Positions 5,300 through 35,023 of a DNA stretch of 39,346 nucleotides are shown here, one piece after another; the stretch's first letter is position 1; the number at the start of each line of letters is the position of its first letter. The position numbers were made by a program, and so were the translations under genes. The notes under the pieces were generated by a model, which had not been told where the DNA came from, ran no database searches, and saw nothing but the letters and a program-made list of their open reading frames with translations. Origin of the DNA: a virus (lineage: Duplodnaviria > Caudoviricetes); IMG/VR virus record IMGVR_UViG_3300044676_005142, positions 1 to 39,346 of that record. One strand, 5' to 3'.

Positions 5300-5548
5300 T
5301 CAAAAAGGGACATCCTCTGATACTCCAGTTGGTGCAGCCTGGGCCGGTGCCTGCTGGCGGTCCTCGTCCAGATCGTAGAAATTGATCCAGCCCTCGAAGT
5401 CACCGCCCACTGGTAGGGCGTCGAGTTTCAGGCACACAGACCCGTCATCGCGCTGCAGGAGCTTGCCCACGGTGAGATAACGGGTTTTTTCCTGGCCGTC
5501 TTTCATGTACTTACCGTTGGTTACTACAGCCTTTTTAATCGCTTTCAT
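5300..5548 (-). CDS. Small SSB-like protein
   Basis: Beta-rich core (KYMKDGQEKTRYLTVGKL), acidic tail ending EDVPF, directly downstream of the exonuclease and ERF genes. Confidence 0.7.
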   Translation of the reverse strand: MKAIKKAVVTNGKYMKDGQEKTRYLTVGKLLQRDDGSVCLKLDALPVGGDFEGWINFYDLDEDRQQAPAQAAPTGVSEDVPF

Positions 5549-6752: not shown

Positions 6753-6877
6753 GCCCATCCCAACTGTTCTAAAAGTTTGACCAGACGCGCCAGGTCTTTC
6801 GACACGAGGAAGTCATCACCATCACCGTGCTCGGCGATCCAGTATTCAGTTCCCGCCTTACGCTTAATCGTGATCAC
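6749..6877 (-). CDS. Hypothetical 42-aa protein (MITIKRKAGTEYWIAEH...), not in ORF track
   Basis: Fills the gap with 4-nt overlaps to both neighbours. GGAGG upstream. Confidence 0.55.
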   Translation of the reverse strand: MITIKRKAGTEYWIAEHGDGDDFLVSKDLARLVKLLEQLGWA

Positions 6878-10694: not shown

Positions 10695-12135
10695 GATACC
10701 AGCAGAGCCAATCAGCAAGATCATGGCCGAGTGTTACAGTAACGACTTTGCCGGGGTTCACTACGCGGCAGAGATATTTCCAATGCCGACAGCGGATGAG
10801 TTTGCCGCGCTCTGTCAGAGTATTGAGGAATACGGACTGGAGGAGCCGTTGCTTCGCGACAAGGAAACGCGCCTGTTAGTCGATGGCCGATCACGGTTGC
10901 TCGCGTGCTTTGTTGTCAGCCAGGAACTGCGGATCGTTGATACTGATGCTGCTGACCTGGTCACGGTTTCACTGGTGCGCAACCTGCACCGGCGCCAACT
11001 GTCGTTCGACCAGAAAGCGATGGTAGGCGGTGAAGCCAAGGCAGCATTCGCCAGACAGGCGAAGGAAAGGCAGGGCGCCAGGACTGATATAAACATTCAG
11101 GCACGCGCGCCTGAATGTTTAGGCCAAGCACGCGACCAGGCCGGCAAAGCGGCAGGTGTCGGCGGCAAGTCCGTAGACAAAGCGGCAGACCTGATTGCCT
11201 ATGCGCCCAAAGAGGCCGAGCAAGTGAAGGCCGGGAAGAAGACACTTGCCCAGGCAGCGCGTGATGCTGCGCCAGTGGTCAAACAAGCGAAGGCGGAGAA
11301 GAAAGCCAAGCAGCAGGCGACCAAGCCAAGGCCGAAGCAAGTGGTGTCTGTGATTACCACAGACGGCAAAAGCGCCGAGATTAAAAAACCCGATCGCGTG
11401 GTGTTTAACCCAACCAATGAAAATGTGGATTGGGCAGCGTACACCTGGAATCCGGTCACCGGGTGCAATCACGGGTGCAAGTTCTGCTATGCGCGGGAGA
11501 TAGCCAGTGAAATGCATCGGCGCGGCGTCGGTGGGTACAACTTCAACTTTGAGCCAGCGCTGCATGAGTACCGGCTGACAGCGCCAACCAATACAAAGCC
11601 AGGTGATGGTCGTGACGGTCGCGTGTTTGTCTGCTCAATGGCCGATCTGTTTGGTAAGTGGGTTCCAGATGAATGGATCGAAAAGGTGTTCAGCGCCTGT
11701 ATGGCATCGCCAGAGTGGGAGTATATGTTCCTAACCAAATGGCCGAAGCGTTATGCAATGTTGGCCGACTTACCGCGAGCGTGGTTTGGCGCCTCGATCA
11801 TTCAACAGGTTGACGTGGCCAGAGTTGAGCGCGATATGCTGGCGTTTCATACCAGCGGGATAAAGTGGATTAGTCTTGAACCAATGCTTGAGCCTATCAC
11901 CTTCTCTGACTTGTCGTGGTGTGACATGGTAGTGATCGGGGCGCAGACCGAAACCAATCAGCCAGACGGGCGCGTGCCGGACTATGCGCCAGCGTTTGAT
12001 TGGGTGGTGGATGTGGTCAACCAGTGTCGGGAGTGGCAGGTTCCGTATTATCTGAAGCCTAATCTTGGAGTGCTGAACAAGAACAAGAATCTTGCCGGAA
12101 TGGATTTGCCGCGACCGGAGATTACGCTGCAATGA
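10684..12135 (+). CDS. ParB-like N-terminal domain fused to DUF5131 (phage Gp37/Gp68, radical-SAM-like)
   Basis: N-terminus IFPM...SIEEYGLEEP...VDGRSR...NLHRRQL. C-terminus WAAYTWNPVTGCNHGCKFCYA, VFVCSMADLF, FLTKWP, ISLEPML. Confidence 0.88.
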   Translation: MKHEIPAEPISKIMAECYSNDFAGVHYAAEIFPMPTADEFAALCQSIEEYGLEEPLLRDKETRLLVDGRSRLLACFVVSQELRIVDTDAADLVTVSLVRNLHRRQLSFDQKAMVGGEAKAAFARQAKERQGARTDINIQARAPECLGQARDQAGKAAGVGGKSVDKAADLIAYAPKEAEQVKAGKKTLAQAARDAAPVVKQAKAEKKAKQQATKPRPKQVVSVITTDGKSAEIKKPDRVVFNPTNENVDWAAYTWNPVTGCNHGCKFCYAREIASEMHRRGVGGYNFNFEPALHEYRLTAPTNTKPGDGRDGRVFVCSMADLFGKWVPDEWIEKVFSACMASPEWEYMFLTKWPKRYAMLADLPRAWFGASIIQQVDVARVERDMLAFHTSGIKWISLEPMLEPITFSDLSWCDMVVIGAQTETNQPDGRVPDYAPAFDWVVDVVNQCREWQVPYYLKPNLGVLNKNKNLAGMDLPRPEITLQ

Positions 12136-13880: not shown

Positions 13881-13919
13881 TCAGATGCAGCACAAGTGGG
13901 CGGTTTACGCCAACCCTGA
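13728..13919 (+). CDS. Hypothetical coiled-coil protein
   Basis: AGGAGG RBS. Lies between the 25-bp repeats. Confidence 0.6.
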   Translation: MMTDEDSERLIKALLSYIDELRNALNDADEGLEYYAQETKKLRAELERLEESDAAQVGGLRQP

Positions 13920-14331
13920 AAAGTTTGGTAATGTAATGCAACAGATCAGTGATTTTGTTGCACGCGAAGCATTGGAAGGCGGCAAGCCGCAGCTGGTCAC
14001 GGTATCGCCGCTGCACGAGGCCAGGCGCACCGATGCGCAGAACCGATTTATGTGGCCCATGATGCAGCAGATCGCAGACGGTATGAACGCCGTGCAGCAA
14101 CAGGCCGACGCGCTGATCACCAAAGAGCACGTCAAGGTGTATCTGGTGCGCAAGTATTTCGGCGTGGACAAGCGGGAAATTGACGGCGAGCCGGTAGTGA
14201 TCGAGAAAAGCACAGCGAAAATGAGCCGATCAGAAATGGTTTACCTGATCGACAGCGCGATGGCCTGGGCAGCTGATAGAGGCTTTGCTGTCATGGTGCC
14301 AAAGGAATATCAAGAGTGGGCGCGTGAATAG
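13885..14331 (+). CDS. ninB: NinB/YbcN-like recombination protein
   Basis: Motifs RRTDAQNRFMWPMMQQIA and STAKMSRSEMVYLID. Confidence 0.75.
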   Translation: MQHKWAVYANPEKFGNVMQQISDFVAREALEGGKPQLVTVSPLHEARRTDAQNRFMWPMMQQIADGMNAVQQQADALITKEHVKVYLVRKYFGVDKREIDGEPVVIEKSTAKMSRSEMVYLIDSAMAWAADRGFAVMVPKEYQEWARE

Positions 14332-18906: not shown

Positions 18907-19332
18907 ATGGGTGTACCAGCGAGCAGACACGGCAAGGTTACGCCGCGCAATAAGGTACCCGGCGCACCACACGGCAGTGGTATTCAGGGTGTAGGCAATG
19001 GGCGCACGTTTGTGGGCTCTCGGGGTTCACGGCCGGCAGGTAGTGACACGTCGGAGTTGGCAGCTGCGCCTGCATGGGTAGCGGGGGGCATACCCGACCA
19101 GACTAATGCGGACGCTGACCAGCCTGTGGCGATTGTAGTATCGGGCTATATCGAGAAGACGAGCCAGGTGACTACGTTCTCATTGGTAACGCCTCCTGCG
19201 GGGTTCTACATGACCACGTCGGGCAAGCTTACGGCGTTTGGTGCGGCTGTTGCTGTGCATAGCATCACGGTCGCAGCGCACAACCCGCACGGCACCACCA
19301 ACGACACATTCAGCTGGACGATCACCGCCTAA
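18907..19332 (+). CDS. Single Ig-like (He_PIG/cadherin-like) domain virion protein
   Basis: PAWVAGGIPDQT...FSLVTPPAGF...ITVAAHNPHGTTNDTFSWTI. Basic N-terminal arm. Confidence 0.7.
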   Translation: MGVPASRHGKVTPRNKVPGAPHGSGIQGVGNGRTFVGSRGSRPAGSDTSELAAAPAWVAGGIPDQTNADADQPVAIVVSGYIEKTSQVTTFSLVTPPAGFYMTTSGKLTAFGAAVAVHSITVAAHNPHGTTNDTFSWTITA

Positions 19333-22300
19333 TGGCAAAGCCACCGGTTTCACGATACGGGCGCAAGCACGATAAGCGCACCGGCCATGAGCGCCAAGGT
19401 CCAGTTATGGGCAGGGGCACGAAGATTACGTCCCTGCCTACGGCGGAGCTATTGGCTCGTGATCGTGAGGCCGAGCGGCTGCATACCAGCGAGCGGGACA
19501 TCGGCGGTAGTGGCAGTATCATCTACGACCGTGGATCGCTATGGTTCATCACACAGCCCAGAGTACCGCAGCGATTCATCACGCACATCGATGTATCTGC
19601 CGTGGTGGGTGTGTCTGAGGGCTTCGACCCGCGCGAGTCGGACAACTACTTCGGCATCTGGCCACAGGCGGCAGAGCCCACAGACGCCGAGGTGAAGGCA
19701 GGCACCGGGGCAGTAGCTAACGGCCACGCCAGCGCACTAGGCGTCCCGCACGGCTCGCAGATTGATCACCGCTTCAACGATCCTGATGTCACGGTTGGTG
19801 AGGTATACCGCCTGCATTGGCTGGCCGAGCATCTGGGTGAGGGAGCCAGTGTGCGCGGCAATGCGGCCACGTTCGCGATAGACAACAGCGCACCGATGGG
19901 CGCACCGTACATTACAGGAACCGAACAAGTTGGTTCGGTTTTGACGTGTAACGTTGAGAACATCAGCGATCCAGACGGCCTGCCCGATGTGGCGACCTAC
20001 GGCTATCAGTGGTACCGCAACGGCGACCCGATACCCGGCGCCACCAGCAAAACCTACACGCTGACCGACGATGACAAGGGCACGCGGATTAAATGCCACG
20101 TGACCTACACCGATCTGCAAGGCACCCTGGAAGGCCCACTGTATACCGATGAGACGGGCACTATTGTGCCGCTCAACTACCCGGCAACCGGCAAGCCCGA
20201 TATCGAGGGCATACTCCGCGAAGGCGAAACGGTCACGGGTGTACTGGGCTCCGTAGCCGACGCCAACGGGATAGACCACGCCACGCTGGACTATCTTGAA
20301 TGGCGCCGCGATGGATTCGAGGTCATACCCGGCGAGACCGAAGACACCTACCTGATCACCGCAGACGATGTTGGCAGCACGCTGCAAGTCGGCCTGGCGT
20401 TTTTCGACGACGACGGCTTCGCAGAAGGCCCGCTATACAGTGATGAGACTGCGGTAGTCCAACCCTACAACCGGCCGGCTACTGGCGCACCAGCGATCAG
20501 TGGCACGGTGCTGGAGGGTGAGACACTGCAGGGTGAGCTCGGCAACGTGGCCGATGAAAACGGACTCCCCGATATATCAACGTGGACCTGGCAGTGGTAC
20601 CGCGAAGATACCCAGGTGGGCACGTCGGCGCGCACCTATGTGCTCGGGGCTGATGACGTGGGGTCGCGCATCAGGGTGCAGGCGTTCTTTACCGACCTGG
20701 CAGGCTTCAACGAGTCCACGGCGCTGAGTGATTACACCATCTACGTGGGCCAGTACAACCGCGCGGCAACGGGCGCCCCCGATATATCCGGTGTGGTGTT
20801 CGAGGGCAACACGCTAACGGCGGGCCTGGGCACCATCGCTGACGCCAACGGCGTGCCGGACATCGGGACGTTTACCTGGCAGTGGCGGCGCAGCGGGTCA
20901 CCGATCGTAGGCGAAACAGGCCAGACCTATGTGATCGGGCCGGCTGACGTGGGTAGCACGTTATCGGTAGGGGCCAAGTTTACCGACCTGGCAGGCTACG
21001 AGGAGGGCTGGCTCTACTCTGCCGAGACGATCACGGTGCCCGGCACCAATCAGCCGCCGACAGGCATTCCGGTGATCACGGGTAACGCCGTGGAGAGCGA
21101 GGTGCTCACCTGCGACACCAGCGGCATTGCGGACCCTGACGGTATCGACCAGGGTAGCTGGGTCTACCAGTGGGTGCGCGACGGCAACGACGTGCCCGGA
21201 CAGCAGGCGCAGACCTACACGCTCGGCGCTAATGACGTGGGCTACGCGATCGTCGTCTACGTGCACTTTGACGACCTGGGCGGCACCTACGAGGGGCCGC
21301 TGATCAGTGATCCGACGGATATCGTTATCCGCACCAACCGGGTCGCCACTGGCAAGCCAGCCATTACCGGCACTGCCGAAATCGAGCAGGTACTGACGTG
21401 TACTGAGGGCAACGTGGCCGACGCTAACGGCCTACCTGATATCGCTGAGTGGACATTTCAGTGGAACCGGGATGGTGCGCCCATCGCTGGCGCTACGTCT
21501 GTGACGTACACCGTGGACCTGGCCGACCAGGGTGCAGCGATCACGGTATCGGTATCCTTCACCGATAACGATGGCTACTCCGAGGGGCCGCTGACCAGCG
21601 ACCCGACAGCAGCTGTGCCGATTGCCGCCTACTTCAAGGACTTCAGCCTATCCGACAACACAGGTTGGACGCACACGCGCGGCTCTGAAGCCACCATGCA
21701 CGATTACCTGGGCAACATTGTCACGGTAAACGGCACAGACGCGCACGATGAGGCGTTTGTCGGCAGCGAGTACACCGACCCAGACACTTACGTCGATCAT
21801 AATGTGGGTTATGGTATTCAGCTTGAGGATGAGACCACTAACTTGCGCTTTTCTTCTAATGACCCATCTGATACCTCAACTGGATTAGCGACTGGTGAAG
21901 CGTGGACACATAATGCGGTAGAGACAGTCACACAGAAAGCAGGGGACACTTCACCGCACGGCTATGACGGTTGGTTAATTACGCCTAATACGTCATCGAC
22001 ATGGCATGGACTGCGACCGCTCCATAACATATTAACAAGCGGCGTGAGGTGGACGCACACTAGCTGGTGGAAACCGAATGGATGCGACTGGATACAGGTG
22101 ACAGGCTCAAGTGGCTATGCGATTGAATACTGCAATATCAATATTCGCACTGGCGAGCTAGGCAACAATGATATTTCGGATTTCGAGGTAAAAACAGAGC
22201 CAAGCACGAATGGCTATATGAAAGTGATGGTCTCGGCTACGTCTACCGGAACTGGCGTTAATAGACAAATTATTCATGCAGTATACGGCGTTGATATAGG

Positions 22301-24746
22301 CGGGCGCACTCAAGCCTGGGCAGGGGATGGCGTTTCGGGCGCATTGCTCGCTGGAATGCAGATCGAGGAAGGTTATTCAACATCTTATATCCCAACAATT
22401 ACAGGAGTGTTGGCATCAGTCACCCGAGCCGCCACCAGTCTATCCGCACCGTTCTCTGACCTGCCACCGCTGCCCGCTGGGGGTGTGGTGAATGACTTCT
22501 GCGGGCAAGTAATATTCCATATGCGGAGTGACTTTGCCGATCTTCCTCAGTGGGCTGAATTCTTTACGTGCTTTGCCAGTCCGTCGAACAGTTCGTATGT
22601 GCGAGCATACCGGGCAGATGCTACCAACGTTCGGTTGCGATGGGTCACTAATTCGGTGACGTTTGATGCAAATGTTGACGCATCCAGTTGGGTCGCTGGG
22701 AAAGTTGTTGATATCAGGTGGATAAAGCGCAGTGTCGGTTCAAGCTATTTCTGGATTGACGGCGAAAAAGCACTAGGCAGAGAAACAACGGATGACTATA
22801 CCGACCCGGTAAACACGATCCACATTGGCCACGCATGGAACGGTGACTTTCACAACAACATAGAGCACCAATACACCCGCATTATTCCCGCAGCGCTGAC
22901 CGACGAGGAGATAGAAGCCTGGCCGACGTGGACAGAGCCGTTGCCGATCATTACGCAACAGCCTACGCCGATTGATTTCGGTGGTGCGCCTCCGCCGTCT
23001 GTGTCATCGAGTCTTGCGCTACTGTTTAGCGATCTCGTCGATGGGCTTAAATCTGGCTGGCATGACGATAGCTCGAAAGGCGCGGCGGTAACAGTGTGGG
23101 GTAGCGGGTTTGATGCGACGACACTAAGCAACAATAAAATAATATTTACGCTTAGCGGCACCGCCTATGAGCTGCCGGCTGGGCATGTTGTAGAGGTTGT
23201 GCAAGACCCCCATGTGTTTTTTCTGCAACGCCTGACATTTCATCTGTGGGATCAACTGCCAGACGGCGATCACACGTTTGTGGTCAAAGTCGGGGAGGTT
23301 GAAACGGAGCAGCTCCCCTTTCATGTTCGGTCAACGGGCAGGCATTTCTACTTTGACGCTAACGCGGCATCAAATGGTACTGGCACCTGGGCCGATCCAT
23401 TCAGGCGCCCAACGGATCATTTTACTAGCGGTTCGGCAAGCGACGGCAGCACGGCGGCGGGCGATCATTACTGGCTCAAAGCGGGCACGTATACAGAGAC
23501 TAATGGCGTTATTTATTTATATGGCTCGCGATGCGTGAGCGCGTCAGAAAATAACCGCATTAGTTTTAGCGCAGTGCCTACGCACGATGTTCTGCTGGAG
23601 AACTGGCTCACCCACGGGGGAAGTAATATCGCCATCTGGGGGTTTGGGGGAAGTTCAGAGCCTGATGGGACGAAGTCATGGTTCGTGCTCAGCAAGTTTC
23701 GAATAGATGGCGGCAAAGGTAGTATCAACCTTTCCGACTCCAACGAGGTGCGGGTTGTCGGTTGCGAGTGCAATGGATTAAAGGGTGATTCCACGACTAC
23801 AGGAGATATTGCTTGGGGTGGCTCGAGCGGAATAGCGTGCAATAACATAAAGATACTTGGTTGCGAGTTCAGGGGTGGCACAACTCAACAAGCAACTGAC
23901 CACGCGGTCTACCCTGGCAGTGGCGGCGCATTTTACGGGACGCAGGATATTGCCTACTGTTATATACACGATAATGATTATGCTGACGGTCAGCTTATTG
24001 GGTACCATTTTAATCAGAGTGGTCAGCAGCGAATACCAGACGGCGAGCGGTATATGGGTTCTCGGTGCCATCATAATTTGGTGGATACTCGAATACCTGG
24101 CACTCCAGCACACGGGCAGTTATCCACTGTGGGTATCAGGGTTTCAATTATTGATGCACGGGATGCTGGGCGATTGCCAACGGATGGAAAGAAAGAGGGC
24201 GAGCCGGTATACGTTTACAATAACGTTATTATTTGTGACAGCGCCGAGGCAACCGATAATGCCTCTTATGGCATCATAGTTACGTCAAATACGGCAGATA
24301 GTTATGTTTGCAACAACACGATAATAAACGGCACGCATAAAGGCGCTGTCGGTTTCGAAGGCGACTCACCGTCAAACGGGATTACGTTTCGCGCAAACTA
24401 CTCTGGCAATGTGATGACATCAGACACCGATAATGGGAATCCGTATTTCCGCTACAGCGGCGGGACGGCGGTGAATGTCACGATAACCGCAGCAGACAAC
24501 GTTTATTTTAACGGGAATTCTGGAAATCTGATCCCGAATGAATCGAACGCCATACAGTCTGACCCGCAGATGACCTACGACCTGGCGAACCTTGCGACGA
24601 CATCAATAACCGTTGCAAATGGAAGTCCTGTCACCAACGCACTGCAAATAGAACACACTCCAAACAGGGCTAGGGATTATAACCACCGCATTGTTAGTGG
24701 TCCGCCATACGATGCCGGAGCTATCAAGCCAGAGGACCCAGCGTGA
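19332..24746 (+). CDS. 1804-aa fibre/adhesin: six Ig-like repeats, head-spike-fibre-like and LamG-like domains, C-terminal right-handed beta-helix
   Basis: Six repeats of about 97 aa (N.PATG.P.I.G...L...I.DA.G...WQW.R.G...TY....DVG). WTHTR..AT...G.QLE...TN and TSYIPT..VTRA motifs. Asn/Ile-ladder C-terminus. Confidence 0.8.
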   Translation: MAKPPVSRYGRKHDKRTGHERQGPVMGRGTKITSLPTAELLARDREAERLHTSERDIGGSGSIIYDRGSLWFITQPRVPQRFITHIDVSAVVGVSEGFDPRESDNYFGIWPQAAEPTDAEVKAGTGAVANGHASALGVPHGSQIDHRFNDPDVTVGEVYRLHWLAEHLGEGASVRGNAATFAIDNSAPMGAPYITGTEQVGSVLTCNVENISDPDGLPDVATYGYQWYRNGDPIPGATSKTYTLTDDDKGTRIKCHVTYTDLQGTLEGPLYTDETGTIVPLNYPATGKPDIEGILREGETVTGVLGSVADANGIDHATLDYLEWRRDGFEVIPGETEDTYLITADDVGSTLQVGLAFFDDDGFAEGPLYSDETAVVQPYNRPATGAPAISGTVLEGETLQGELGNVADENGLPDISTWTWQWYREDTQVGTSARTYVLGADDVGSRIRVQAFFTDLAGFNESTALSDYTIYVGQYNRAATGAPDISGVVFEGNTLTAGLGTIADANGVPDIGTFTWQWRRSGSPIVGETGQTYVIGPADVGSTLSVGAKFTDLAGYEEGWLYSAETITVPGTNQPPTGIPVITGNAVESEVLTCDTSGIADPDGIDQGSWVYQWVRDGNDVPGQQAQTYTLGANDVGYAIVVYVHFDDLGGTYEGPLISDPTDIVIRTNRVATGKPAITGTAEIEQVLTCTEGNVADANGLPDIAEWTFQWNRDGAPIAGATSVTYTVDLADQGAAITVSVSFTDNDGYSEGPLTSDPTAAVPIAAYFKDFSLSDNTGWTHTRGSEATMHDYLGNIVTVNGTDAHDEAFVGSEYTDPDTYVDHNVGYGIQLEDETTNLRFSSNDPSDTSTGLATGEAWTHNAVETVTQKAGDTSPHGYDGWLITPNTSSTWHGLRPLHNILTSGVRWTHTSWWKPNGCDWIQVTGSSGYAIEYCNINIRTGELGNNDISDFEVKTEPSTNGYMKVMVSATSTGTGVNRQIIHAVYGVDIGGRTQAWAGDGVSGALLAGMQIEEGYSTSYIPTITGVLASVTRAATSLSAPFSDLPPLPAGGVVNDFCGQVIFHMRSDFADLPQWAEFFTCFASPSNSSYVRAYRADATNVRLRWVTNSVTFDANVDASSWVAGKVVDIRWIKRSVGSSYFWIDGEKALGRETTDDYTDPVNTIHIGHAWNGDFHNNIEHQYTRIIPAALTDEEIEAWPTWTEPLPIITQQPTPIDFGGAPPPSVSSSLALLFSDLVDGLKSGWHDDSSKGAAVTVWGSGFDATTLSNNKIIFTLSGTAYELPAGHVVEVVQDPHVFFLQRLTFHLWDQLPDGDHTFVVKVGEVETEQLPFHVRSTGRHFYFDANAASNGTGTWADPFRRPTDHFTSGSASDGSTAAGDHYWLKAGTYTETNGVIYLYGSRCVSASENNRISFSAVPTHDVLLENWLTHGGSNIAIWGFGGSSEPDGTKSWFVLSKFRIDGGKGSINLSDSNEVRVVGCECNGLKGDSTTTGDIAWGGSSGIACNNIKILGCEFRGGTTQQATDHAVYPGSGGAFYGTQDIAYCYIHDNDYADGQLIGYHFNQSGQQRIPDGERYMGSRCHHNLVDTRIPGTPAHGQLSTVGIRVSIIDARDAGRLPTDGKKEGEPVYVYNNVIICDSAEATDNASYGIIVTSNTADSYVCNNTIINGTHKGAVGFEGDSPSNGITFRANYSGNVMTSDTDNGNPYFRYSGGTAVNVTITAADNVYFNGNSGNLIPNESNAIQSDPQMTYDLANLATTSITVANGSPVTNALQIEHTPNRARDYNHRIVSGPPYDAGAIKPEDPA
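19884..21620 (+). repeat. Six tandem Ig-like domain coding repeats (about 290 bp each)
   Basis: Repeat starts NSAPMGAP, NYPATGKP, NRPATGAP, NRAATGAP, NQPPTGIP, NRVATGKP. Confidence 0.85.
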
Positions 24747-25732
24747 TATACGATTTCTCAGATATTCCTGGGCTTTACGCCTATTTTTCGGCGACCGAGG
24801 GCGTTAGCGATACAACGGGCAGTGTTGTGAACAGTACCACCAGTGTGTCTGGCTCAGCACACCCGTTAGTATTAACAAGCACCGGCACAAACACCGTGAG
24901 CATATTAGCTGATCAGGTTGGTGCAATGCCGGGGTTTTATTCGACTGATGGTATGTCAAAAAACGCCATTTTGAAGCACACGTTCGGCGAATTTCAGTCA
25001 ACGCCAAACGGTTACACAATGGCAGTGCTTTATCTAGTCGTTCAGCACACGAGCTTTACTCATTTGTGCAGCATGACGAATGACACCGGATCTTATGGAT
25101 TGCGCTGTAGCTCTGGGGGCACAAACTGGACGATTACCTGTTACAAAACCAGCACCAGCCCAGAGGCAATCCCCGTACCCACAGCTACGGTATCGACGCA
25201 TATCATCTCTGCCGGCGCTACATCTGGGAATGGCAAGTGGTATCGAGATGGCGTGTTGGACGCGAATGCTCCATTGGCGTCAGGGAGCAATCCAGGCTTT
25301 GCAGAGATAGGTTTGATTAGTCGAGCGCACAGCCCAAGCACTACCAGCATGGATGCCGCCATAGCGATATGCGCAATCTATGATCGGCAGATTGACGATA
25401 CTGAAGCTGCTGACTTGCATGATCTGATGGCCTATTGGGCGGCAAACAATGAGGCGCCATCCGCAGGGCCAGGTCCATCAGCAACGTTTGGACCCGTTGC
25501 AACCAATGATGACCCATCAGTAACGGCTTGGCAGTGGGAAGAGTCATCGGACGGTGTAGCCTGGGCTAACGTGGGCACGATCTTAACGGACGTTACAGGC
25601 GCGACAACCACGAGCCTGACGGTCAATAGCGCACCTATCGGGGCAGACCAGACGCAAGTGCGCTGCAAGGCGACCAGCGAGAAAGAGCCAGCAGGCGTAT
25701 TCAGCCACGCAGCCACATTGACGGTGCAATAA
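24743..25732 (+). CDS. LamG/ConA-like plus Ig-like domain virion protein
   Basis: KWYRDG...IAICAIYDRQI (LamG-like end) and WQWEESSDG..W...GATTTSLTV....QVRC (Ig-like). Confidence 0.65.
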   Translation: MIYDFSDIPGLYAYFSATEGVSDTTGSVVNSTTSVSGSAHPLVLTSTGTNTVSILADQVGAMPGFYSTDGMSKNAILKHTFGEFQSTPNGYTMAVLYLVVQHTSFTHLCSMTNDTGSYGLRCSSGGTNWTITCYKTSTSPEAIPVPTATVSTHIISAGATSGNGKWYRDGVLDANAPLASGSNPGFAEIGLISRAHSPSTTSMDAAIAICAIYDRQIDDTEAADLHDLMAYWAANNEAPSAGPGPSATFGPVATNDDPSVTAWQWEESSDGVAWANVGTILTDVTGATTTSLTVNSAPIGADQTQVRCKATSEKEPAGVFSHAATLTVQ

Positions 25733-27465
25733 TGGCTACAACCAGCATTGACTACAAACATCCTTATGCCTCACTGCAGTGGCTACACCTACCAACTGGC
25801 GGTAGTTGGCAGGACGCCTCACTGCTGTCAGGTTACGTTGGCGGCCAAGGCACAAAAACGCTTGAGATAAGCAGCGCCACATCAGAGGAAACGGGCTTCC
25901 TGAAATGCGTGCTAACTAATCCAGCCGGTGGCACTGTCGAGAGCGATCCAGTCACGCTTACAGGTGAAGCACAAGCGCCTAGCATCACTGTTGGGATCAT
26001 CAACAAGACGCCCTATGAGGGCGAGAGCGCCGTATATGGTCCAATCACAGTAACAGGCTCACCAGCGCCTACGCTGACTTGGGAGGCTGAGACGGCCGAC
26101 GGGAATAACAACTGGGCAGACGCAGATACAGTATTTGGCGCTGATGGCAGCGGGCAAGCCACAGACACTTATACCATAGCGAATACCCAGCCCGCGGATA
26201 ATCGTGATGTCCGCGTGCGGGCCACGAACACAGCAGGCGAAGACATCAGCCAGGCGGCGCTAACGGTGACACCTACGCTAGCGTTTGTGGGTGCAGAGCC
26301 AACGGATAAGACGATATCGGCTACAGGAGCGTCGGAATATCTGCACGATTTCACCACCAAGCAGATAGGCGCCTGGACCCACACGCGCACCAGCGTCGCA
26401 ACGGCGCCCGATGAGTCGGGTGTTATCCAGACCTATGCGAGCGGTGAGCCTGCCTGGTATCGGGACCAGGGTTTGCAGTTGGAGGATTCGAGCACCAATA
26501 AGGTTGACAGTAGTTCGCTTACTGGTGGGAGTTGGATCAATAGCGGCGCAACTATCTCTACTCACGGGACGATATTGGACCCTGCTGGAGACCCAGCGCA
26601 GGACGTTGCAGACAATGGGGTAAATAGTGGCGTAGTGTATTCGAGCGTGTATTCTGACGCGAGCGACACGGCGAGCATCTACGCAAGGACAGTTTCAGGA
26701 AGTGGAACCGCGCATCTGCTTGCTGGACGAAACAACGCATCACCTAACCTCGAGACATTAACCGATGCGTGGCAGCGGTTCGATTATACGATGCCTGATG
26801 AATGGCTACATGCTATCGACTATCGCTCCGGTTCGGGTGGTACCCCGTCGTTAGGTGAGGCACTGCTAGCATTTCCCCAGACTGAAGCGAAAACCTTTGC
26901 CACGAGCTACATCCCAACATCAGGTTCAACAGTTACCCGCTCCGCCACTTTCTGCTCTGCGACCTTTGCCGAGCTGGGCGCACCGTTGCCAGCGGGCGGG
27001 CTGACGAATGATTTTTGTTTTCAGCTTGTTGTATCTTTCTCGGAGGATTGGGAAGACATACCGATTAGTGGTGACAGGCTATTAAGTATTGCTGGATCAG
27101 AAAGTAGTCGGTGCGCCCTAACAAAGTCCTTTGCTGATCGGTGGACGTGGGAGACTTATGACGTATCGAGGGGTGCGCAGAGTTGCTTTTTCCTACAAAG
27201 CGAGTGGGTTGATACCGTTCCTAAAGCGGGTGAGGCATGGGATTTCAGGGTAAGAAACTCATCTACGAGCGGGTGTACGGTGTGGATGCTGGGGGCTAAG
27301 AGGGGCAATGTGAACGACACGCAAGGATTGCCCACAGATGGCGTTGATACGGTTGACTTGGGTTCGCATATAGGTGGCATTAACATATTTTCAAGTGTCA
27401 GAGTCCACAAGTTCCGCATAGTCCCCGAAGCACTCAGCGACGAAGACATTGAGGCATGGACTTAA
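25732..27465 (+). CDS. Ig-like plus head-spike-fibre-like protein, paralogue of the middle of the 1804-aa protein
   Basis: Shares WTHTR, GLQLED..TN, TSYIPT..VTR.AT, PLPAGG..NDFC and I.P.AL.DE.IEAW with the large protein. Confidence 0.75.
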   Translation: MATTSIDYKHPYASLQWLHLPTGGSWQDASLLSGYVGGQGTKTLEISSATSEETGFLKCVLTNPAGGTVESDPVTLTGEAQAPSITVGIINKTPYEGESAVYGPITVTGSPAPTLTWEAETADGNNNWADADTVFGADGSGQATDTYTIANTQPADNRDVRVRATNTAGEDISQAALTVTPTLAFVGAEPTDKTISATGASEYLHDFTTKQIGAWTHTRTSVATAPDESGVIQTYASGEPAWYRDQGLQLEDSSTNKVDSSSLTGGSWINSGATISTHGTILDPAGDPAQDVADNGVNSGVVYSSVYSDASDTASIYARTVSGSGTAHLLAGRNNASPNLETLTDAWQRFDYTMPDEWLHAIDYRSGSGGTPSLGEALLAFPQTEAKTFATSYIPTSGSTVTRSATFCSATFAELGAPLPAGGLTNDFCFQLVVSFSEDWEDIPISGDRLLSIAGSESSRCALTKSFADRWTWETYDVSRGAQSCFFLQSEWVDTVPKAGEAWDFRVRNSSTSGCTVWMLGAKRGNVNDTQGLPTDGVDTVDLGSHIGGINIFSSVRVHKFRIVPEALSDEDIEAWT

Positions 27466-28469: not shown

Positions 28470-30512
28470 ATGGCCGGCGAATTAAAGAACCTGACGACGG
28501 TACTTGACCAACAGATAGTCGAAGCCGATACCCGAAACTCCGAAGTAGGGAGCCAGCGGGAAAGGAACCACGTCTATTATGCAATGGGCGCAATCGGTAA
28601 CGAGCAGCCAGGTCGCAGTCGGTACGTTGACCCGGCGGTCATGGACACGGTTGAGTCAAAGAAGGCATTTTTCCGCGAGACGTTTTTCAGCGGCCGCAAA
28701 ACCGTTAAGTTTGTGCCGACCGAGAATGAGTCACAGCAGCAGGCTGACGCCAAAACCGCCTACGTAGAGCGACAGCTCCAGGAAAACAGCTGGTTTCAAC
28801 TGATGCGCGATTGCCTGCATGACGCATTCGTAGCCAAGCGCTGTGTGTTGCATATCGAGTGGGAGGAGGATGAGGACGCGACCATCCTGCAGGCGGTACA
28901 GTCGGCGCCAGAGCACCTGCAGTGGCAGATGTCGCAGATACCGGACCTGATCGACGCGGATATGTCGGCGGTGCAACAGAACCCTGACGGGACGCTGACG
29001 GGCAATGTGCGCCTGATCTCGGACAGCAGTCGGGTGAAAATGCGCCTGATCGCGCCGGAGCGATACTACCGAGACCCGTATGCCGACTACCCGGAGAATT
29101 GCGCCTACATCAGCTTTAACGATGAGGTCACGCGCGCGGAGTTACTACGCCAGGGGATTGACCCCGAGCAGGTAGACACGCTGGCGAACGAATACCGGCA
29201 CCGGAACGACGAGGAAGACAACGCGCGTAAAGCGCACGATGGCTCATGGACCCGGCAGCGCAAGTATTCTCGAGTGGAAGAGCTGGAGCTCATTACCACG
29301 TACTGGACCTACACCTGGCTGGACCTGTCCGAGTATCTGGACGGGGCGCCGGAAGAGCCGCGCCTGTACAAGATACGCTGGGCCAAGGGTGAGGTGCTGC
29401 AGTATGCGACCGCCGACGGTGAGACCCGCTACGCGATTGACGAAGTATCCGAGATGCCATTCTTTGAGTGGACCCAGTACAAGATATCGCACGCCAGCAA
29501 CGGTATGTGCGATGCCGACGTCCTGGCGCCGCTGCAGAAGCAGTTATCCACGTTCAAGCGCCTGATCATCGACAATCAGCAGATGGCGAACACGTCGCGC
29601 TGGCTCGTGCAGACGGGTGGCGTAAAGAACCTGCGCTCACTGCTCGACACCACCATCGGCGGCGTGATCGAAACCCGCAGCCCCGATGCTGTGCAGCCGC
29701 TGCCCCCGCCCCCGCTGAGCAACGCAGCGCTCCCGGCTATCGAGCTATTGGAGACCGACAAAGAAGCCCGCAGCGGCAATACCAGGCTGAGCAAGGGCAT
29801 GAACAAGGACGCGATGAGCGAGCAGAATGCCGCATCGATGATCGAGAAACTCACCACCAGCGCCAACAAGCGCATTGCGGGTGAGGCCAGGGACTTTGCC
29901 GAATCCTTCCTGGTGCCGATCATGCGTCACATTTACCGCCTGGGTGTGCGCCATGATCACCGCGCGTACCAGCTGGAGGTAGGCGGCAAGCAGATGCAGG
30001 CGGCGCCACAGCAGTGGTCGGAGCCGGCTCCGTTTGCTGAGGTTGTGGTAGCACTGACGCCGGATGAGTCTGCCAAACAGGCGATGGCGTTAATGCAGAT
30101 GCACGGGCTGCTGTCGCAAGACCCGGCACTGGCCATGATGTACGGCATGGCCCAGAAGCACGCGATGGCCGACGAGCTGTTCGACTTGATGGGCGTGAAG
30201 GATGCGTCCCGCTTCCTGATGTCGCCAGATTCGCCGGAGTTCCAGCAGCAGATGCAGCAACAGCAGCAGGAAATGCAGATGCAGCAACAGATGCAGATGC
30301 AGCAGATGCAGATGCAGGCACAGCTGATGCAATCGGCCGATCAGCGCGAATGGCAGCGGGTACAGCACGCGGATACTGAGACCAAGCTAAAAGTGATGGA
30401 CACGGCCAGCGACAATGACCGCGAGGACGAAAAGCTGGAGCACACCAAAGTGGTGGACTTCGCGAAACTGGGCATAGAGAGAGGAAAGCTCAATGCGTCG
30501 GGTACTACCTGA
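28470..30512 (+). CDS. Portal protein (P22/SU10-like)
   Basis: GRSRYVDPAVMDTVE, LQKQLS..KRLIIDN, KEARSGNTRLSKG, Gln-rich C-terminal tail. 680 aa, upstream of scaffold and capsid. Confidence 0.92.
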   Translation: MAGELKNLTTVLDQQIVEADTRNSEVGSQRERNHVYYAMGAIGNEQPGRSRYVDPAVMDTVESKKAFFRETFFSGRKTVKFVPTENESQQQADAKTAYVERQLQENSWFQLMRDCLHDAFVAKRCVLHIEWEEDEDATILQAVQSAPEHLQWQMSQIPDLIDADMSAVQQNPDGTLTGNVRLISDSSRVKMRLIAPERYYRDPYADYPENCAYISFNDEVTRAELLRQGIDPEQVDTLANEYRHRNDEEDNARKAHDGSWTRQRKYSRVEELELITTYWTYTWLDLSEYLDGAPEEPRLYKIRWAKGEVLQYATADGETRYAIDEVSEMPFFEWTQYKISHASNGMCDADVLAPLQKQLSTFKRLIIDNQQMANTSRWLVQTGGVKNLRSLLDTTIGGVIETRSPDAVQPLPPPPLSNAALPAIELLETDKEARSGNTRLSKGMNKDAMSEQNAASMIEKLTTSANKRIAGEARDFAESFLVPIMRHIYRLGVRHDHRAYQLEVGGKQMQAAPQQWSEPAPFAEVVVALTPDESAKQAMALMQMHGLLSQDPALAMMYGMAQKHAMADELFDLMGVKDASRFLMSPDSPEFQQQMQQQQQEMQMQQQMQMQQMQMQAQLMQSADQREWQRVQHADTETKLKVMDTASDNDREDEKLEHTKVVDFAKLGIERGKLNASGTT

Positions 30513-30571
30513 TTTAGAAGCGATTAAGCGTAATCACGCCGTTTACGGCAAGGCCAAGAGGGATAGAGATA

Positions 30572-30919
30572 ATGACCCGCAATTCAAACGGCAACGGCAG
30601 AGAGAGATCAGCGCCAGCCACGTCCAGCGACGAGCAGATGAGCTTGCAGCAACTGCTGACTCTGGGGCAGGAGTCAGCGCGAGCGCTCCAGAACCAGAGT
30701 GTGGAAATAGCGCTCCAACACGCCGTAAGAGTCCTGCAAGACGAGTGGGCGGAAACAAAGCCCGAGGAAGTAAAAAAGCGGGAGGGGCTGTTTCTTGAGC
30801 TCCAGGGTCTAAAGCGATTTTATAGCAGCATGACAGGTTTTGTTGCGCAGGCGCAGGGCATTGCCGATCAGCAGCGCCAGCGCGAATTGCAGCAAGAGCA
30901 AGAATACGCACAAATTTGA
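30572..30919 (+). CDS. Hypothetical helical protein between portal and scaffold
   Basis: G..ARAL......W..T.PEE..KREGL pattern. Position conserved in podovirus head modules. Confidence 0.7.
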   Translation: MTRNSNGNGRERSAPATSSDEQMSLQQLLTLGQESARALQNQSVEIALQHAVRVLQDEWAETKPEEVKKREGLFLELQGLKRFYSSMTGFVAQAQGIADQQRQRELQQEQEYAQI

Positions 30920-30942
30920 GCCATTGACAGCGAGAGAGTATT

Positions 30943-31968
30943 ATGGCAACAGAAGATAAGGCCAACCCCGTGACCGGGGAGCCATCTATGTCGTTTCGAG
31001 AGGCAAAACAGCGCGAGCTGATATCGGAGCTGAACGCCAGCCAACCCGAGCCCGAAAACGACACATCACCCGCCGGTGAAATCGGTAACGATGAAGCACC
31101 GGAGCGCGAACCCGAGGAGGTTGCGGCGGAGGACTCTGTGGATGACGCAGAGCAACCCGAAACCGAAGCTGACGAGGATGCGTCTGACGACGTCGGGGAA
31201 ACCGACGATGACGAGAACACCGAATGGACTGCACGCGAGCAAGAGCTTGAACAGAGAGCGGAGCAAGCTGAAGAAGCGCGTAAGTCGATGGAACGTGACT
31301 ATCGTCGAAAGACACACAAGCTCGCAGAAAGCGTGCGCGCAGTAGACGAAAAGGTCAAAGAGGTAGAATCGACCGCCGAATACTACGCGACCCAGGCGAA
31401 ACTGCAGGTTGATCAGTTCCAGAGTGTTAACTGGCAACAATTGCAGACCGATCCGCAGCAGTACCAGCAGGCGCAGCAGGCGTTTATGCAGGCGCAGCAG
31501 CAGTATCGGCAACGCATGGGTGAGTTGAAGCAGATTCAGGAGCGTAGCAAGGCTATGCAGTCTGAGATGAGCAACTCAATCGCCGAGCACAGCAGAGGTG
31601 TCCTGGCCCACCAGATACCTGATTGGGGTGGCGAGGTTTACCAGAAGCTGCGCGAGTTTGCGGAACGTGAATACGACTACACTGGCGAGCAGTTCGATGA
31701 AATTGTGGACTGGCGCCCCATGAAGATGCTGTACGACGCCTACAAGGCCGACGGTATTAAGCAGGGCGCAGCCAAGACAGTCAAAAAGGTAGGGCGGAAG
31801 CAGGGCCGGAAAGCACCCGGCAGGACTGCAGACGGACAACCGCGCAATGCAGCGGGCCAGTTCCAGAAAGCGCGGGAAACCGCATTTTCCAACCCTGGCG
31901 ACCGTAGCGCATTCCGTGAGTTCCAGAACCAGCGCCTGCAGCGTGAAAAAGGTCGCGGCCGCCGGTGA
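30943..31968 (+). CDS. Capsid scaffolding protein
   Basis: Acidic N-terminus, DYRRKTHKLAE, NWQQL..DP..Y, IPDW, basic C-terminus. Directly upstream of the capsid gene. Confidence 0.85.
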   Translation: MATEDKANPVTGEPSMSFREAKQRELISELNASQPEPENDTSPAGEIGNDEAPEREPEEVAAEDSVDDAEQPETEADEDASDDVGETDDDENTEWTAREQELEQRAEQAEEARKSMERDYRRKTHKLAESVRAVDEKVKEVESTAEYYATQAKLQVDQFQSVNWQQLQTDPQQYQQAQQAFMQAQQQYRQRMGELKQIQERSKAMQSEMSNSIAEHSRGVLAHQIPDWGGEVYQKLREFAEREYDYTGEQFDEIVDWRPMKMLYDAYKADGIKQGAAKTVKKVGRKQGRKAPGRTADGQPRNAAGQFQKARETAFSNPGDRSAFREFQNQRLQREKGRGRR

Positions 31969-31988
31969 TGAATAGATAGGAGGCTAAA

Positions 31989-32275
31989 ATGCCTGGTTTT
32001 CATACTTACGAACAACTCCGTCAGGCGGAAGATGTTCAAGACATGATATACATCGTTTCACCGGTTGATAATCCGGTGGCGAGTATGTCGAAAACAATTC
32101 GTGCGACTGGAAAGCTGCACGAATGGACGGAAGATAAGCTGTTAGCAGCTGACAGCAACAAGGCGATTGAAGGCGCCGCTGCACCCGCTGATGTTTCGGC
32201 ACCCGTCACTGAGATGAGCAACTACTGCCAGATCATGACGAAGCGGGCCGAGATCACTGGGACACTGGAAGACGT
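31989..32275 (+). CDS. Major capsid protein (DUF5309/SU10-like), exon 1
   Basis: EDVQDMIYIVSPVDNP, HEWTEDKL, EGAAA, NYCQIMTK...ITGT. AGGAGG RBS. Confidence 0.9.
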
Positions 32276-33148
32276 TACTTTAGGCGTCCTCGCGGCGTAA
32301 TCCGCGTGACAAACCCCGTGAACTGCTGGAACCCTGTCAAATGGCGATCAGCAGCCAAGCTATCGAGGAATCGATGGAAGGTTCAGAGACTAGATTGTAC
32401 AGCCCCAATGTTACACATTATTCACGTCTTCAAGGCGGGAAATGTGGGATAATGGGCTATGTGAATCCACGAGTGCGGGGCAACCAAATGAAAACTTGTA
32501 AGGTGTGCAAAGAGGAGAAACCGCTTACCGCTTATTACAAGAACAAGCAGTTAGCCGATGGCGTGGAAAATCAGTGCAAAGATTGCCGCAAGGCAAAAAT
32601 GCGCGACAACCACAAAAACCCAGAAGTCAGGGCGGCAAAGACTGCTTATAGGCGCAAGCGACTGGAAGACCCAGAGTATGCAGCGAGCGAGGCGGCGCGC
32701 ATTGAGGCGTGGCGTCAGAAGCGAATGCAGGATGCTGACTTCCGCCAGAAGTGCGTTGATCGCGCTAGACGGTGGCAGAAGGCGAATCCTGGCAAAGCGC
32801 TAGCGATACAGCGTAAAGTGAACATTCAGCGAGAGATACGCCAGAAAGAAGCCACAGTGGAGTGGGCTGACACTGGATACATCCACGACGTTTACGCCAA
32901 CGCTCGCGAGTTCAACGATATAGCCAATGATATGGGGCTGACTGGCTCAACTTGGAAAATGGAAGTTGACCACATTGTTCCGCTTCAAGGCGATATCGTT
33001 TCTGGGCTTCACAACGAGCACAACTTGCAGGTACTGAACGCGAAAGCTAATCGGCAGAAAAGCAATGCGTTCGATGGTTGAAGATATAGTCCGATACTCC
33101 GTGGAAACGCGGAGAGTGCGGGATAAAGAGCCCACACATAACATTTTG
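32276..33148 (+). mobile_element. Group I intron 1 (873 nt) in the major capsid gene, carrying a homing endonuclease
   Basis: P1 GACGU/GCGUC with the U.G pair; P GAACTGCTGGAA; Q ATCAGCAGC; R TCAGAGACTAG (32383-93); S AAGATATAGTCC (33081-92); P3 CCCCGTG/TGCGGGG; terminal G. Splicing gives LEDV-EKYGRTSEMSYQL in frame. Confidence 0.9.
32488..33081 (+). CDS. Intron-encoded HNH homing endonuclease with N-terminal zinc finger
   Basis: MKTCKVC...CKDC and EVDHIVPLQG..VSGLHNEHNLQVL...NRQKSN. Lies in the loop of P8 (CAACCA/TGGTTG). Confidence 0.88.
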   Translation: MKTCKVCKEEKPLTAYYKNKQLADGVENQCKDCRKAKMRDNHKNPEVRAAKTAYRRKRLEDPEYAASEAARIEAWRQKRMQDADFRQKCVDRARRWQKANPGKALAIQRKVNIQREIRQKEATVEWADTGYIHDVYANAREFNDIANDMGLTGSTWKMEVDHIVPLQGDIVSGLHNEHNLQVLNAKANRQKSNAFDG

Positions 33149-33544
33149 CGAAAAGTACGGTAGAACCAGTGAAATGTCATACCAGCTTGAGCTGCGTTAC
33201 AGCGAACTGGCGAATGACGAAGAACTGGCGATCATGGGCAAGCCAGGCGGAACCCGGCAGACGGGTGACGCGGGATCGAGCTCAACCGCGCGAGAGATGG
33301 CGTCGTTGATCTCCCAGCTGGCTGCTGGAGTGCAGGAGGATGGCGCGCTGTACACGCTGATCTCCGATCTCGAGGCGGGCGTACTGGCGGCACACCTGGC
33401 TACGTATGAGTTGGGCGGTAACCCGAGCTATCTGGTGACCAACCCGGCAAATGCGAGCTACATTGCCAACTTTGCCTACTCGGCAGGACGGCAGCGTGAT
33501 CTGCGGAATGAAAAGCAACTCGTGAACGTTATCGAGCTGCTGGT
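33149..33544 (+). CDS. Major capsid protein, exon 2
   Basis: KYGRTSEMSYQL...ELANDEELAI, AREMASL, YELGGNPSYLVTNP. Confidence 0.88.
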
Positions 33545-33786
33545 CGATTTGGCCGCTTAATGGAGCAATCCATTATGTTATTACACCGTGAATTCGGGGA
33601 AGCCGTACAGGTAATCCCGAGCGAAGCCACCAGGGGACTGGTGGAACGTGTAGAGACTAGGGCATGGAGTCTAGAACAGACGGTAAAGCCCCAAGAGCGC
33701 GGTGCACCCCAAGCGGGTGAAGAGATAGTCCGACACTCCAGCGAAAGCCGGAGAGCGCAGGATAAAGAGCCTGCCGATAACAGTTG
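33545..33786 (+). mobile_element. Group I intron 2 (242 nt, no ORF) in the major capsid gene
   Basis: P2 TAATGGA-GCAA-TCCATTA; P GAATTCGGGGAA; Q AATCCCGAGC; R GTAGAGACTAG (33650-60); P3 CACCGTG/CGCGGTG; P8 CACCC/GGGTG; S AAGAGATAGTCC (33720-31); terminal G. Splicing gives VIELLV-NPYGELDVILDR. Confidence 0.88.
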
Positions 33787-34021
33787 CAACCCGTACGGCG
33801 AACTGGACGTAATTCTGGATCGCAACGCTGACGACAGCATGACGCTGTTGGACTTCAACTACCTGGCCACGCCGGTATTGCGTCCGACAACTGACTGGCC
33901 TTTGGCGAAGACTGGCGACAGCGAGAACCGCCAGATTCTGCGCGAGAGCACGTTTGCGGTGTTGAATTCTGAGGCACACGCAGCGGTAATCAACATACCG
34001 ACTAATTTGACGGTAAGCTGA
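33787..34021 (+). CDS. Major capsid protein, exon 3
   Basis: NPYGELDVILDR...LRP....LAKTGDSENRQILRESTFAVLNSEAHA, the typical C-terminus of this capsid family. Confidence 0.88.
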
Positions 34022-34026
34022 TGGAA

Positions 34027-34048
34027 CGGGGGTCAGCAATGGCCCCCG
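34027..34048 (+). terminator. Strong hairpin right after the capsid gene (terminator, attenuator or mRNA stabiliser)
   Basis: CGGGGGTCA-GCAA-TGGCCCCCG. No U tract. Confidence 0.45.
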
Positions 34049-34055
34049 ATCTACT

Positions 34056-34403
34056 ATGGCAGATAGACGTTTAATCAAGAATTACGGCGACCTGAAGCGC
34101 TGGCACTCCAGCGAGGATGGGAAGGATTACAGGGGTGTATCGCAGGACCTTGACCCGGTGTTCAAGCACGTTCGGTTCATGGACGATAAGATGAACCGGG
34201 CAAGCCGGGCAGATAACCCGAATCAGTGGAAGTCGATTGGCAGTATCCCAATGTCGATACTGATCGACTGGCTACAGAAGAACCATTACACAATGGATCA
34301 ATGGGCCACGAACGAAGACGGCGCCAAAACGAAGTTTCTGAAATTCATTAAAAAGCGCGAGTTTCACAAGCTGTTCGCGCATGATGTGAAGTTGGGCGTA
34401 TGA
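34056..34403 (+). CDS. Hypothetical post-capsid protein
   Basis: SQDLDPV...WKSIGSIPMSILIDW pattern. Position after the capsid gene. Confidence 0.7.
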   Translation: MADRRLIKNYGDLKRWHSSEDGKDYRGVSQDLDPVFKHVRFMDDKMNRASRADNPNQWKSIGSIPMSILIDWLQKNHYTMDQWATNEDGAKTKFLKFIKKREFHKLFAHDVKLGV

Positions 34404-35023
34404 ATTATGGCGAGCTGAAGGCGGCGGTGCAGAGCTATCTGTATGACCGCAGCGACCTGGTAAACGTAATACCGACGTTTATCACCCTGGCGGAGCGGCG
34501 CATCTTTCGGCAGCTTCGAGTACCGGCTAACGAGGCCATTGTCCACTGGTCTGCGCACGAGGAGGGCTCGGTGGACCTACCCACTGACTACCTGGAAGCT
34601 AAGCTATTCACTTGCAATCAGGTGCCGCTGCAGCGCATCAGTGACCTGAATCACCTGAACTCACAGGACAAGCGCAGCGCAAGCGGTGAGCCAAAGGAGT
34701 TCAGTCGGATCGGCGCGCAACTGCACCTATACCCGTCGCCGGATAGCACGGTAGACCTGGCGCTGGTGTACTGGGCGGACCTGTCGGGCCAGTTGGTGCA
34801 GGATACCGACACCCATGAAGTGTTACGCATCGGCGCTGACCTGTATCTGCACGGGGCGCTGATGGAAGCATCAGCCTATCTCGGGCAGGACAGTCGCATA
34901 CCCGTCTGGCAGGCTCGCTATGGAGAGGAGCTGGCGCAGATACAGCAACAGGCGGCGGAAGCCGAGTATGCGGGCAGTGTCACAGCTGTGCGCGACGTTT
35001 ACCCAGACGCGAAGGGGTATTGA
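34400..35023 (+). CDS. Head-tail adaptor protein
   Basis: MNYGELKAAVQSYL.DRSDL...IPTFITLAERRI.R.LR, LPTDYLE, LYPSPD, DLYLHGALMEA. Confidence 0.85.
   Translation: MNYGELKAAVQSYLYDRSDLVNVIPTFITLAERRIFRQLRVPANEAIVHWSAHEEGSVDLPTDYLEAKLFTCNQVPLQRISDLNHLNSQDKRSASGEPKEFSRIGAQLHLYPSPDSTVDLALVYWADLSGQLVQDTDTHEVLRIGADLYLHGALMEASAYLGQDSRIPVWQARYGEELAQIQQQAAEAEYAGSVTAVRDVYPDAKGY

Follow-up and report, generated by a model that had tools for sequence, protein, structure and literature searches.

The single major capsid gene of this uncultured sediment phage lies in three separate open reading frames (ORFs). The locus raises the question of whether these are the remains of a broken gene or the exons of a working one and, if the latter, whether the inserts between them serve the phage or themselves. 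The window (the whole stretch of DNA that was analyzed, 39,346 nucleotides of a viral metagenome record) carries the three pieces among genes of an SU10-type head module:

28470-30512, plus strand: SU10-type portal (PF23899, E 2.3e-108)
30943-31968, plus strand: head scaffold (PHROG 3927, E 3.9e-22)
31989-32275, plus strand: exon 1, codons 1-95 and two bases of Val96 (Pfam profile positions 10-96, E 5.9e-22)
32276-33148, plus strand: intron 1, group I, 873 nt, with an endonuclease ORF in the P8 loop (RF00028, 53.8 bits)
32488-33081, plus strand: predicted HNH-type homing endonuclease, 197 aa (PHROG 1035, E 2.4e-25; HNH PHROG 2255, E 1.3e-10)
33149-33544, plus strand: exon 2, 396 nt (Pfam profile positions 105-216, E 3.4e-10; RNA contigs from X18 and X20)
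33545-33786, plus strand: intron 2, group I, 242 nt, without an endonuclease ORF (RF00028, 60.4 bits)
33787-34021, plus strand: exon 3 with the stop codon (Pfam profile positions 216-291, E 7e-16; RNA contigs from X19 and X20)
34400-35023, plus strand: SU10-type adaptor (PF24175, E 4.5e-25)

All three coding pieces match the capsid family PF17236 (SU10_MCP, formerly DUF5309) in order and each above its 24.1-bit cut-off, in agreement with the family named in the initial annotation. The exon coordinates proposed there are exact: 287, 396 and 235 nucleotides add up to 918, which encode 305 amino acids and a stop codon. The alignment to intronless capsids also bears out the joining, with no insertion or deletion within 10 amino acids of either junction in any of 120 intact homologs (the best 120 of 380 found). 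Furthermore, a profile of 60 intact homologs matched solved capsid structures (9ny2, E 1.5e-48; SU10 7z45, E 2.5e-24). A second capsid copy was sought in the six frames of the window and none was found. As had been foreseen, gene callers fragment the gene: from this contig, the sequence collection lists a first piece of 103 aa and an intron ORF of 209 aa.

Each intron splits a valine codon after its second base, and a U precedes and a G ends both inserts. When all such U/G splice pairs were scored by brute force against the capsid profile, the junctions listed above ranked first, with a margin of 4.6 bits for intron 1 and of only 0.2 bits for intron 2; with a P1 filter added, the margins were 7.4 and 6.6 bits, respectively. 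Junction 2 is also placed within one base by an RNA contig, and the U/G rule settles the remainder. Both introns sit in conserved stretches of the capsid protein (87th and 79th percentile). The reading frame of exon 3 extends back through intron 2 (33560-34021) to an ATG that overlaps the stop codon of unspliced exon 2. However, the frame is likewise open in just 3 of 25 ORF-less introns, and a read-through use of the unspliced intron was treated as chance. A scan for promoters and terminators over positions 30400-34500 stayed at chance level.

The three separately called ORFs, the linear record and its rating of 52% completeness could point to a fragmented pseudogene or an assembly chimera. 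This explanation has next to no chance of being correct and is largely refuted by the exact joined frame and the RNA junction described below. Furthermore, half or more of the sequence words of the stretch are present in 17 public DNA runs, whose sources are sediment and estuary metagenomes, and a 1453-nt DNA contig runs through intron 1, exon 2 and intron 2 and matches them at every base. The 39-kb record may also be more complete than 52%, because the longest contigs of many relatives measure 36-41 kb. A capsid homolog with 71% identity is labeled as part of a Woeseiaceae MAG, which is a host lead only. Elsewhere in the window, proteins of 1804 aa and of 577 aa with immunoglobulin-like repeats are encoded between the terminase and portal genes (19332-27465), where large surface or tail proteins are unusual, and positions 10684-12135 encode a 483-aa protein in which a ParB-like nuclease region is fused to DUF5131.

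The assignment of both inserts to group I, made at first by eye, is confirmed by the Rfam model RF00028, which matches them above its gathering score of 50 at positions 32266-33114 (E 4.5e-11) and 33529-33753 (E 4.7e-13). Up to E 1, the Rfam search returned nothing besides the two introns in the window, and no sensor-like RNA. The core anatomy and the U.G pair of P1 described in the initial annotation were also recovered, with P1, P2, P3, P4, P6, P7, P8, P9 and an extra 3' hairpin pairing in both introns. Both have the features that define membership of the group: the P3-P7 pseudoknot, P4-P6, P8 and the G-C pair of the guanosine site in P7. In intron 1, the pairing check located the following helices:

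32271-75/32284-88, plus strand: P1
32291-95/32302-06, plus strand: P2
32314-20/32474-80, plus strand: P3
32323-28/32349-54, plus strand: P4
32388-92/33087-91, plus strand: P7
32481-86/33075-80, plus strand: P8
33097-102/33109-14, plus strand: P9
32276-32281, plus strand: 5' strand of P10, pairing with 33152-33157 in exon 2 (6/6 pairs)

The last of these is the 6-bp pairing of TACTTT with AAAGTA of exon 2 that had been predicted as P10; the P10 of intron 2 has 3 bp only. A C.U mismatch closes the P2 tetraloop of intron 1.

Covariation argues for a conserved fold. Among 23 related ORF-less introns that include intron 2 of the window (three introns of locus L064 and near-duplicates were left out), 95.2% of the alignment cells were paired and 43 of 61 pairs had changes on both sides. 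The counted structure leans towards pairing because it was drawn from the window intron and the consensus fold of the same alignment. None of 500 shuffles reached this level of covariation, and slid controls were 28-42% paired. All five P7 pairs were invariant, and four of the seven P3 pairs had changes on both sides. In this intron lineage, the last hairpin (33123-33130 and 33762-33769 in the window) combines a stem that covaries freely with an A-rich loop that is strongly conserved and likely serves as a tertiary contact or a protein site.

Introns of class IA carry an extension between P7 and P3, which in subgroup IA2 (T4 and Twort type) consists of side-by-side P7.1 and P7.2 hairpins. The Twort intron, for example, has P7.1 and P7.2 (PMC1995217). 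The P7-P3 extension of intron 2 is instead nested, with P7.1 enclosing P7.1a, and covaries in both stems, so intron 2 is filed as IA-like only.

Evidence for splicing comes from three metatranscriptome runs (X18-X20), in which five contigs fall on the window. Four are at least 99% alike and all four avoid the introns. Of the two RNA junctions that the initial annotation had predicted, that of intron 2 was recovered, whereas no RNA contig covers junction 1. The contig from X20 joins position 33544 to 33787 without a difference in 99 + 52 nt, and in a contig from X19, which belongs to another study, position 33787 is immediately preceded by the final 17 nt of exon 2. Both contigs from X18 lie inside exon 2. 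This RNA evidence consists of assembled contigs, at depths of 2.2 and 4.4, rather than raw reads, and the fact that no RNA contig falls within an intron or over junction 1 was not by itself counted as evidence. Intron 2 thus appears to be spliced in environmental RNA, a conclusion supported by the joint in contigs of two studies. Two further matches were set aside. Another contig from X19 (32097-32149) is less than 90% alike and comes from another phage, and a joint of positions 32394 and 33075 in X9, matched on one side by 24 nt at relaxed likeness, is most likely another phage's ORF-less intron.

A joined contig could also derive from a co-occurring allele whose DNA does not contain intron 2, either as its transcript or as carried-over DNA, and intron 1 may have decayed. 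RNA libraries can contain DNA, close relatives show intron loss and gain, junction 1 is without RNA, and the window introns score lower in Rfam (54 and 60 bits) than the introns of relatives (67-97 bits). However, the link of exon 2 to intron 2 was found in contigs of all five DNA runs examined and neither joined form in any, in runs that did not come from the RNA samples and were picked with an intron-bearing query, and in contigs, which drop rare variants. Known intron-free close relatives differ in protein where the X20 contig matches without a difference. Furthermore, every core helix of both introns pairs, and the ORF of intron 1 is intact and has a relative with 86% identity. We give this alternative little credence and regard the removal of intron 2 from the transcript of the window's own gene as more likely.

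The ORF in the P8 loop of intron 1, which the initial annotation did not mention, bears on what kind of element the intron is. The 197-aa product has an N-terminal CxxC-CxxC, long helices and a C-terminal DH...N...N motif. Residues D161, H162, N179 and N188 and the four cysteines are invariant in 40 aligned homologs, and we take the former to be the catalytic histidine and the metal-binding Asp/Asn residues of the HNH motif. In the structure model, strands 158-162 and 180-184 and helix 185-190 are in line with the beta-beta-alpha-metal motif of HNH nucleases. The Pfam search of the ORF gave no match, the PDB sequence search gave no significant solved relative, and Foldseek on the model gave none at E<=0.001, its weak top rows being mostly HNH nucleases. 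In viral contigs, a search for relatives found two weak loci, which were without an Rfam intron. The sequence features suggest that the ORF likely encodes a homing-type HNH endonuclease. The reading frame is open upstream as far as two in-frame ATGs (32452 and 32341) that fall inside the ribozyme core, and the stop codon overlaps the 3' strand of P8. The end of the I-TevI ORF likewise overlaps structured RNA of its own intron (PMC2988022).

The distribution of the introns among relatives is patchy. The capsid alignment retrieved 59 viral loci. In 54 of them, the covered part of the gene is uninterrupted, and the remaining five (three of them near-identical) have two or three Rfam-confirmed introns each, at other sites. 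Proteins of close relatives tell a similar story. Two are intact at both intron sites (P0086, 87% identical, and P0203, 86%), and a third (P0198, 92%) is uninterrupted at codon 96 and ends abruptly at codon 109. Three others are cut short at codon 96 and end in nearly the read-through tail of the window (P0121, P0135 and P0209); P0126 is cut short there too, whereas P0210, of the same 90% cluster, is whole. The introns of relatives at codon 96 are deduced from such truncated tails, and the sharing of the site rests on proteins. No DNA locus with an intron at either window site was retrieved. A viral pattern search for shared sites returned 30 loci, none with a capsid match or the S motif, and a metagenome pattern search returned six loci, whose one capsid gene was of the three-intron type of locus L069.

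When 30 introns from 18 loci and the window were mapped, they resolved into 26 distinct introns, which occupy 17 sites of the capsid family, 15 of them other than the two of the window. Three sites lie within 13 nt (codons 226, 228 and 230/231). The mapping used a P1 of four pairs as a filter, and positions in distant genes are approximate, with gaps in 6 of the 30 alignments. P10 was not part of the filter, and the introns' own 3' exons average 4.4 P10 pairs versus 2.9 for foreign ones. The cores of the two window introns are 63% alike, and each more closely resembles introns that distant capsid genes carry at other sites (73 and 70%); this suggests that the two were acquired separately. Two candidate signs of adaptation to the introns were rejected: Glu97, which would add a P10 pair, is also found in intron-free P0197 and P0203 and in 8 of 120 homologs, and unusual residues around codon 228 are also found in intron-free P0086.

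Other carriers of the family were observed alongside. In the close relatives L069 (1088-2500) and L064 (2814-4086), the same capsid gene contains three group I introns each, and in L063 (2258-3036), also a close relative, it contains two, all at sites other than those of the window; the introns of L064 have a different P7 extension, and those at codon 19 of L063 and L069 appear to be without P2. P0121 and P0206 seem to carry an intron at codon 16. In a co-occurring phage, seen in loose contig ends from X5, X14 and X15, the 5' part of an intron matches intron 1 at positions 32284-32331 (47 nt, five differences). That intron lies after capsid codons 14-16, whose final eight bases are identical to those of exon 1 of the window. 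One guide would serve both sites, which hints at movement within the gene or convergence.

These observations bear on the proposal in the initial annotation that splicing could gate capsid synthesis. As a selected switch, the introns would make the capsid wait on conditions that affect splicing (translation, GTP, Mg2+ or host state). The full capsid protein does require both excisions, with no second copy to replace it, capsid genes are frequent intron hosts, and environmental cues can affect group I splicing, for which work on T4 introns is cited (PMC10914365). Yet introns are missing from 54 of the 59 loci and from the 120 intact proteins, both are missing from relatives with 85-87% identity, and the carriers differ in position, with 17 sites in use. 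The window has no sensor-like RNA, the few RNA contigs contain only spliced or exon sequence, and the capsid intron of mycobacteriophage LittleE is reported to be efficiently spliced (PMC3706429). A selected gate is thus improbable and the proposal is not supported: the introns are absent from most relatives, occupy other sites elsewhere, and in one case encode a homing-type endonuclease. The patchy and shifting distribution together with the endonuclease fits selfish spread better. We put the probability at about 0.85 that the locus is one capsid gene with two group I introns, with intron 2 seen removed in RNA and intron 1 predicted to be removed likewise, both likely being selfish, independently acquired passengers rather than regulatory elements. 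Judging from the anatomy, capsid output would still depend passively on splicing.

Under the selfish reading, both introns would most likely splice themselves out of the late mRNA through the established two steps of group I chemistry, of which the intron 2 product is what was observed. Free guanosine bound in P7 would attack after the U.G pair of P1, and exon 1 would then attack after the terminal G, aligned by P10. In mixed infections, the HNH-type protein of intron 1 may nick or cut capsid alleles that are free of the intron, near codon 96, and the intron would be copied into the cut allele during repair, in line with the homing model (PMC3984707, PMC2988022). Recombination genes (ERF, YqaJ exonuclease and NinB; 5545-6758 and 13885-14331), present beside the SU10-type head module, could supply the repair. 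For the ORF-less intron 2, we suggest more cautiously that it may have lost its own endonuclease, been co-converted over the 396-nt exon or used nucleases in trans. Their position in conserved motifs of an essential gene, which tolerates nothing but precise loss, would explain why both introns persist.

The initial annotation regarded the capsid gene as an unusual host, and this view is not supported, given the published cases in LittleE, Tuc2009 and crAss-like Delta/Zeta phages (PMC3706429, PMC7886860). For a tally of host genes, we used a 21-base motif from the 3' core of the window introns, which retrieved 103 viral loci (93 after removal of exact duplicates). The downstream segment had at least 25 aa in 84 loci, and PHROG named the host in 58 (counted by hand): major head 35 (19 of SU10 type), reductase 9, DNA polymerase 4, tape measure 4, terminase 3, minor head 2 and thymidylate synthase 1. 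Outside this count were 7 endonucleases and 19 loci without a PHROG match. After clustering at 70% identity, major head genes made up 22 of 41. A control motif absent from the window introns yielded 124 loci from 2 of the 64 parts of the collection. We took the first 80 and dropped six giant-virus records and one duplicate; 32 of the remaining 73 had a named host. Major head genes accounted for 11 of these 32, followed by DNA polymerase (6), tail (4), reductase (2), dUTPase (2), RNA polymerase (2) and five further hosts with one each, in a hand count without clustering. Major head was thus the commonest named host in both motif samples, which share certain biases: the collection was built partly on capsid hallmarks and kept short contigs for such genes, flanking segments may belong to neighbor genes, and sampling bias may contribute to the ranking.

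The apparent preference of phage group I introns for genes of nucleotide synthesis and DNA metabolism was called mysterious in 2025 (PMC12350094). Our tallies raise the tentative idea, which we hold at somewhat less than even odds, that capsid genes are the top group I host in uncultured phages, that introns concentrate in the SU10-type gene, a hot spot where about 920 coding bases offer at least 17 insertion sites, and that one IA-like lineage moves between sites and capsid families, with the window as a transcribed and spliced example. If so, the DNA-metabolism preference would be a sampling effect of cultured phages, and conservation and essentiality, not gene function, would explain the choice of target. 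Capsid-based phylogenies and virus detectors would then also lose genomes to split genes. The supplementary tables of two reports (PMC12880540 and PMC11835236) may bear on this claim.

Among known systems, the capsid intron of mycobacteriophage LittleE, established by RT-PCR and N-terminal sequencing (Pope et al. 2013, PMC3706429), is similar in lying in a major capsid gene after a U and ending in G, with an internal endonuclease ORF, intron-free relatives and RNA splicing. LittleE is described as a siphovirus with one intron of uncertain class and an opposite-strand ORF, whereas the capsid of the window is of SU10 type and its gene has two introns, both with complete RF00028 cores; the HNH-type ORF, in P8, lies on the same strand. 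Lactococcal phage Tuc2009 also has a group I intron in a capsid subunit gene, a single one, likened here by its description (PMC3706429). The crAss-like Delta/Zeta phages share with the window several group I introns in metagenomic capsid genes, one of them in five fragments (Yutin et al. 2021, PMC7886860). These phages are portrayed as having large genomes, intron-rich throughout, with introns found via protein domains (PMC7886860). In contrast, the 39-kb record has Rfam-detectable introns in the capsid gene only, and a junction seen in RNA.

The layout of intron 1 resembles that of the T4 td/I-TevI and Bacillus phage I-HmuI/II introns, whose ORFs lie in a peripheral loop, with the 3' end reaching into structured RNA, and which are inserted at codons critical for function (PMC2988022). 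The hosts of td and I-HmuI/II are DNA-metabolism genes, however, and I-TevI is a GIY-YIG enzyme (PMC2988022); the window ORF has an N-terminal four-cysteine region, a C-terminal HNH motif and no significant solved relative. Support from metatranscriptomes is shared with the Jug jumbo phage, in which reads back group I splicing for 37 of 76 introns (PMC12880540). The hosts named for it are terL, nrdD and DNA polymerase, not capsid, and its supplementary tables may list capsid introns (PMC12880540). The literature searched, in which subscription journals are mostly absent, contained no SU10/Kuravirus capsid intron and no survey of capsid hosts. Introns in phage capsid genes are thus already published, and the window adds a further case that is real and well supported: a clean, RNA-supported multi-intron phage capsid gene that needs correct annotation and changes no principle.
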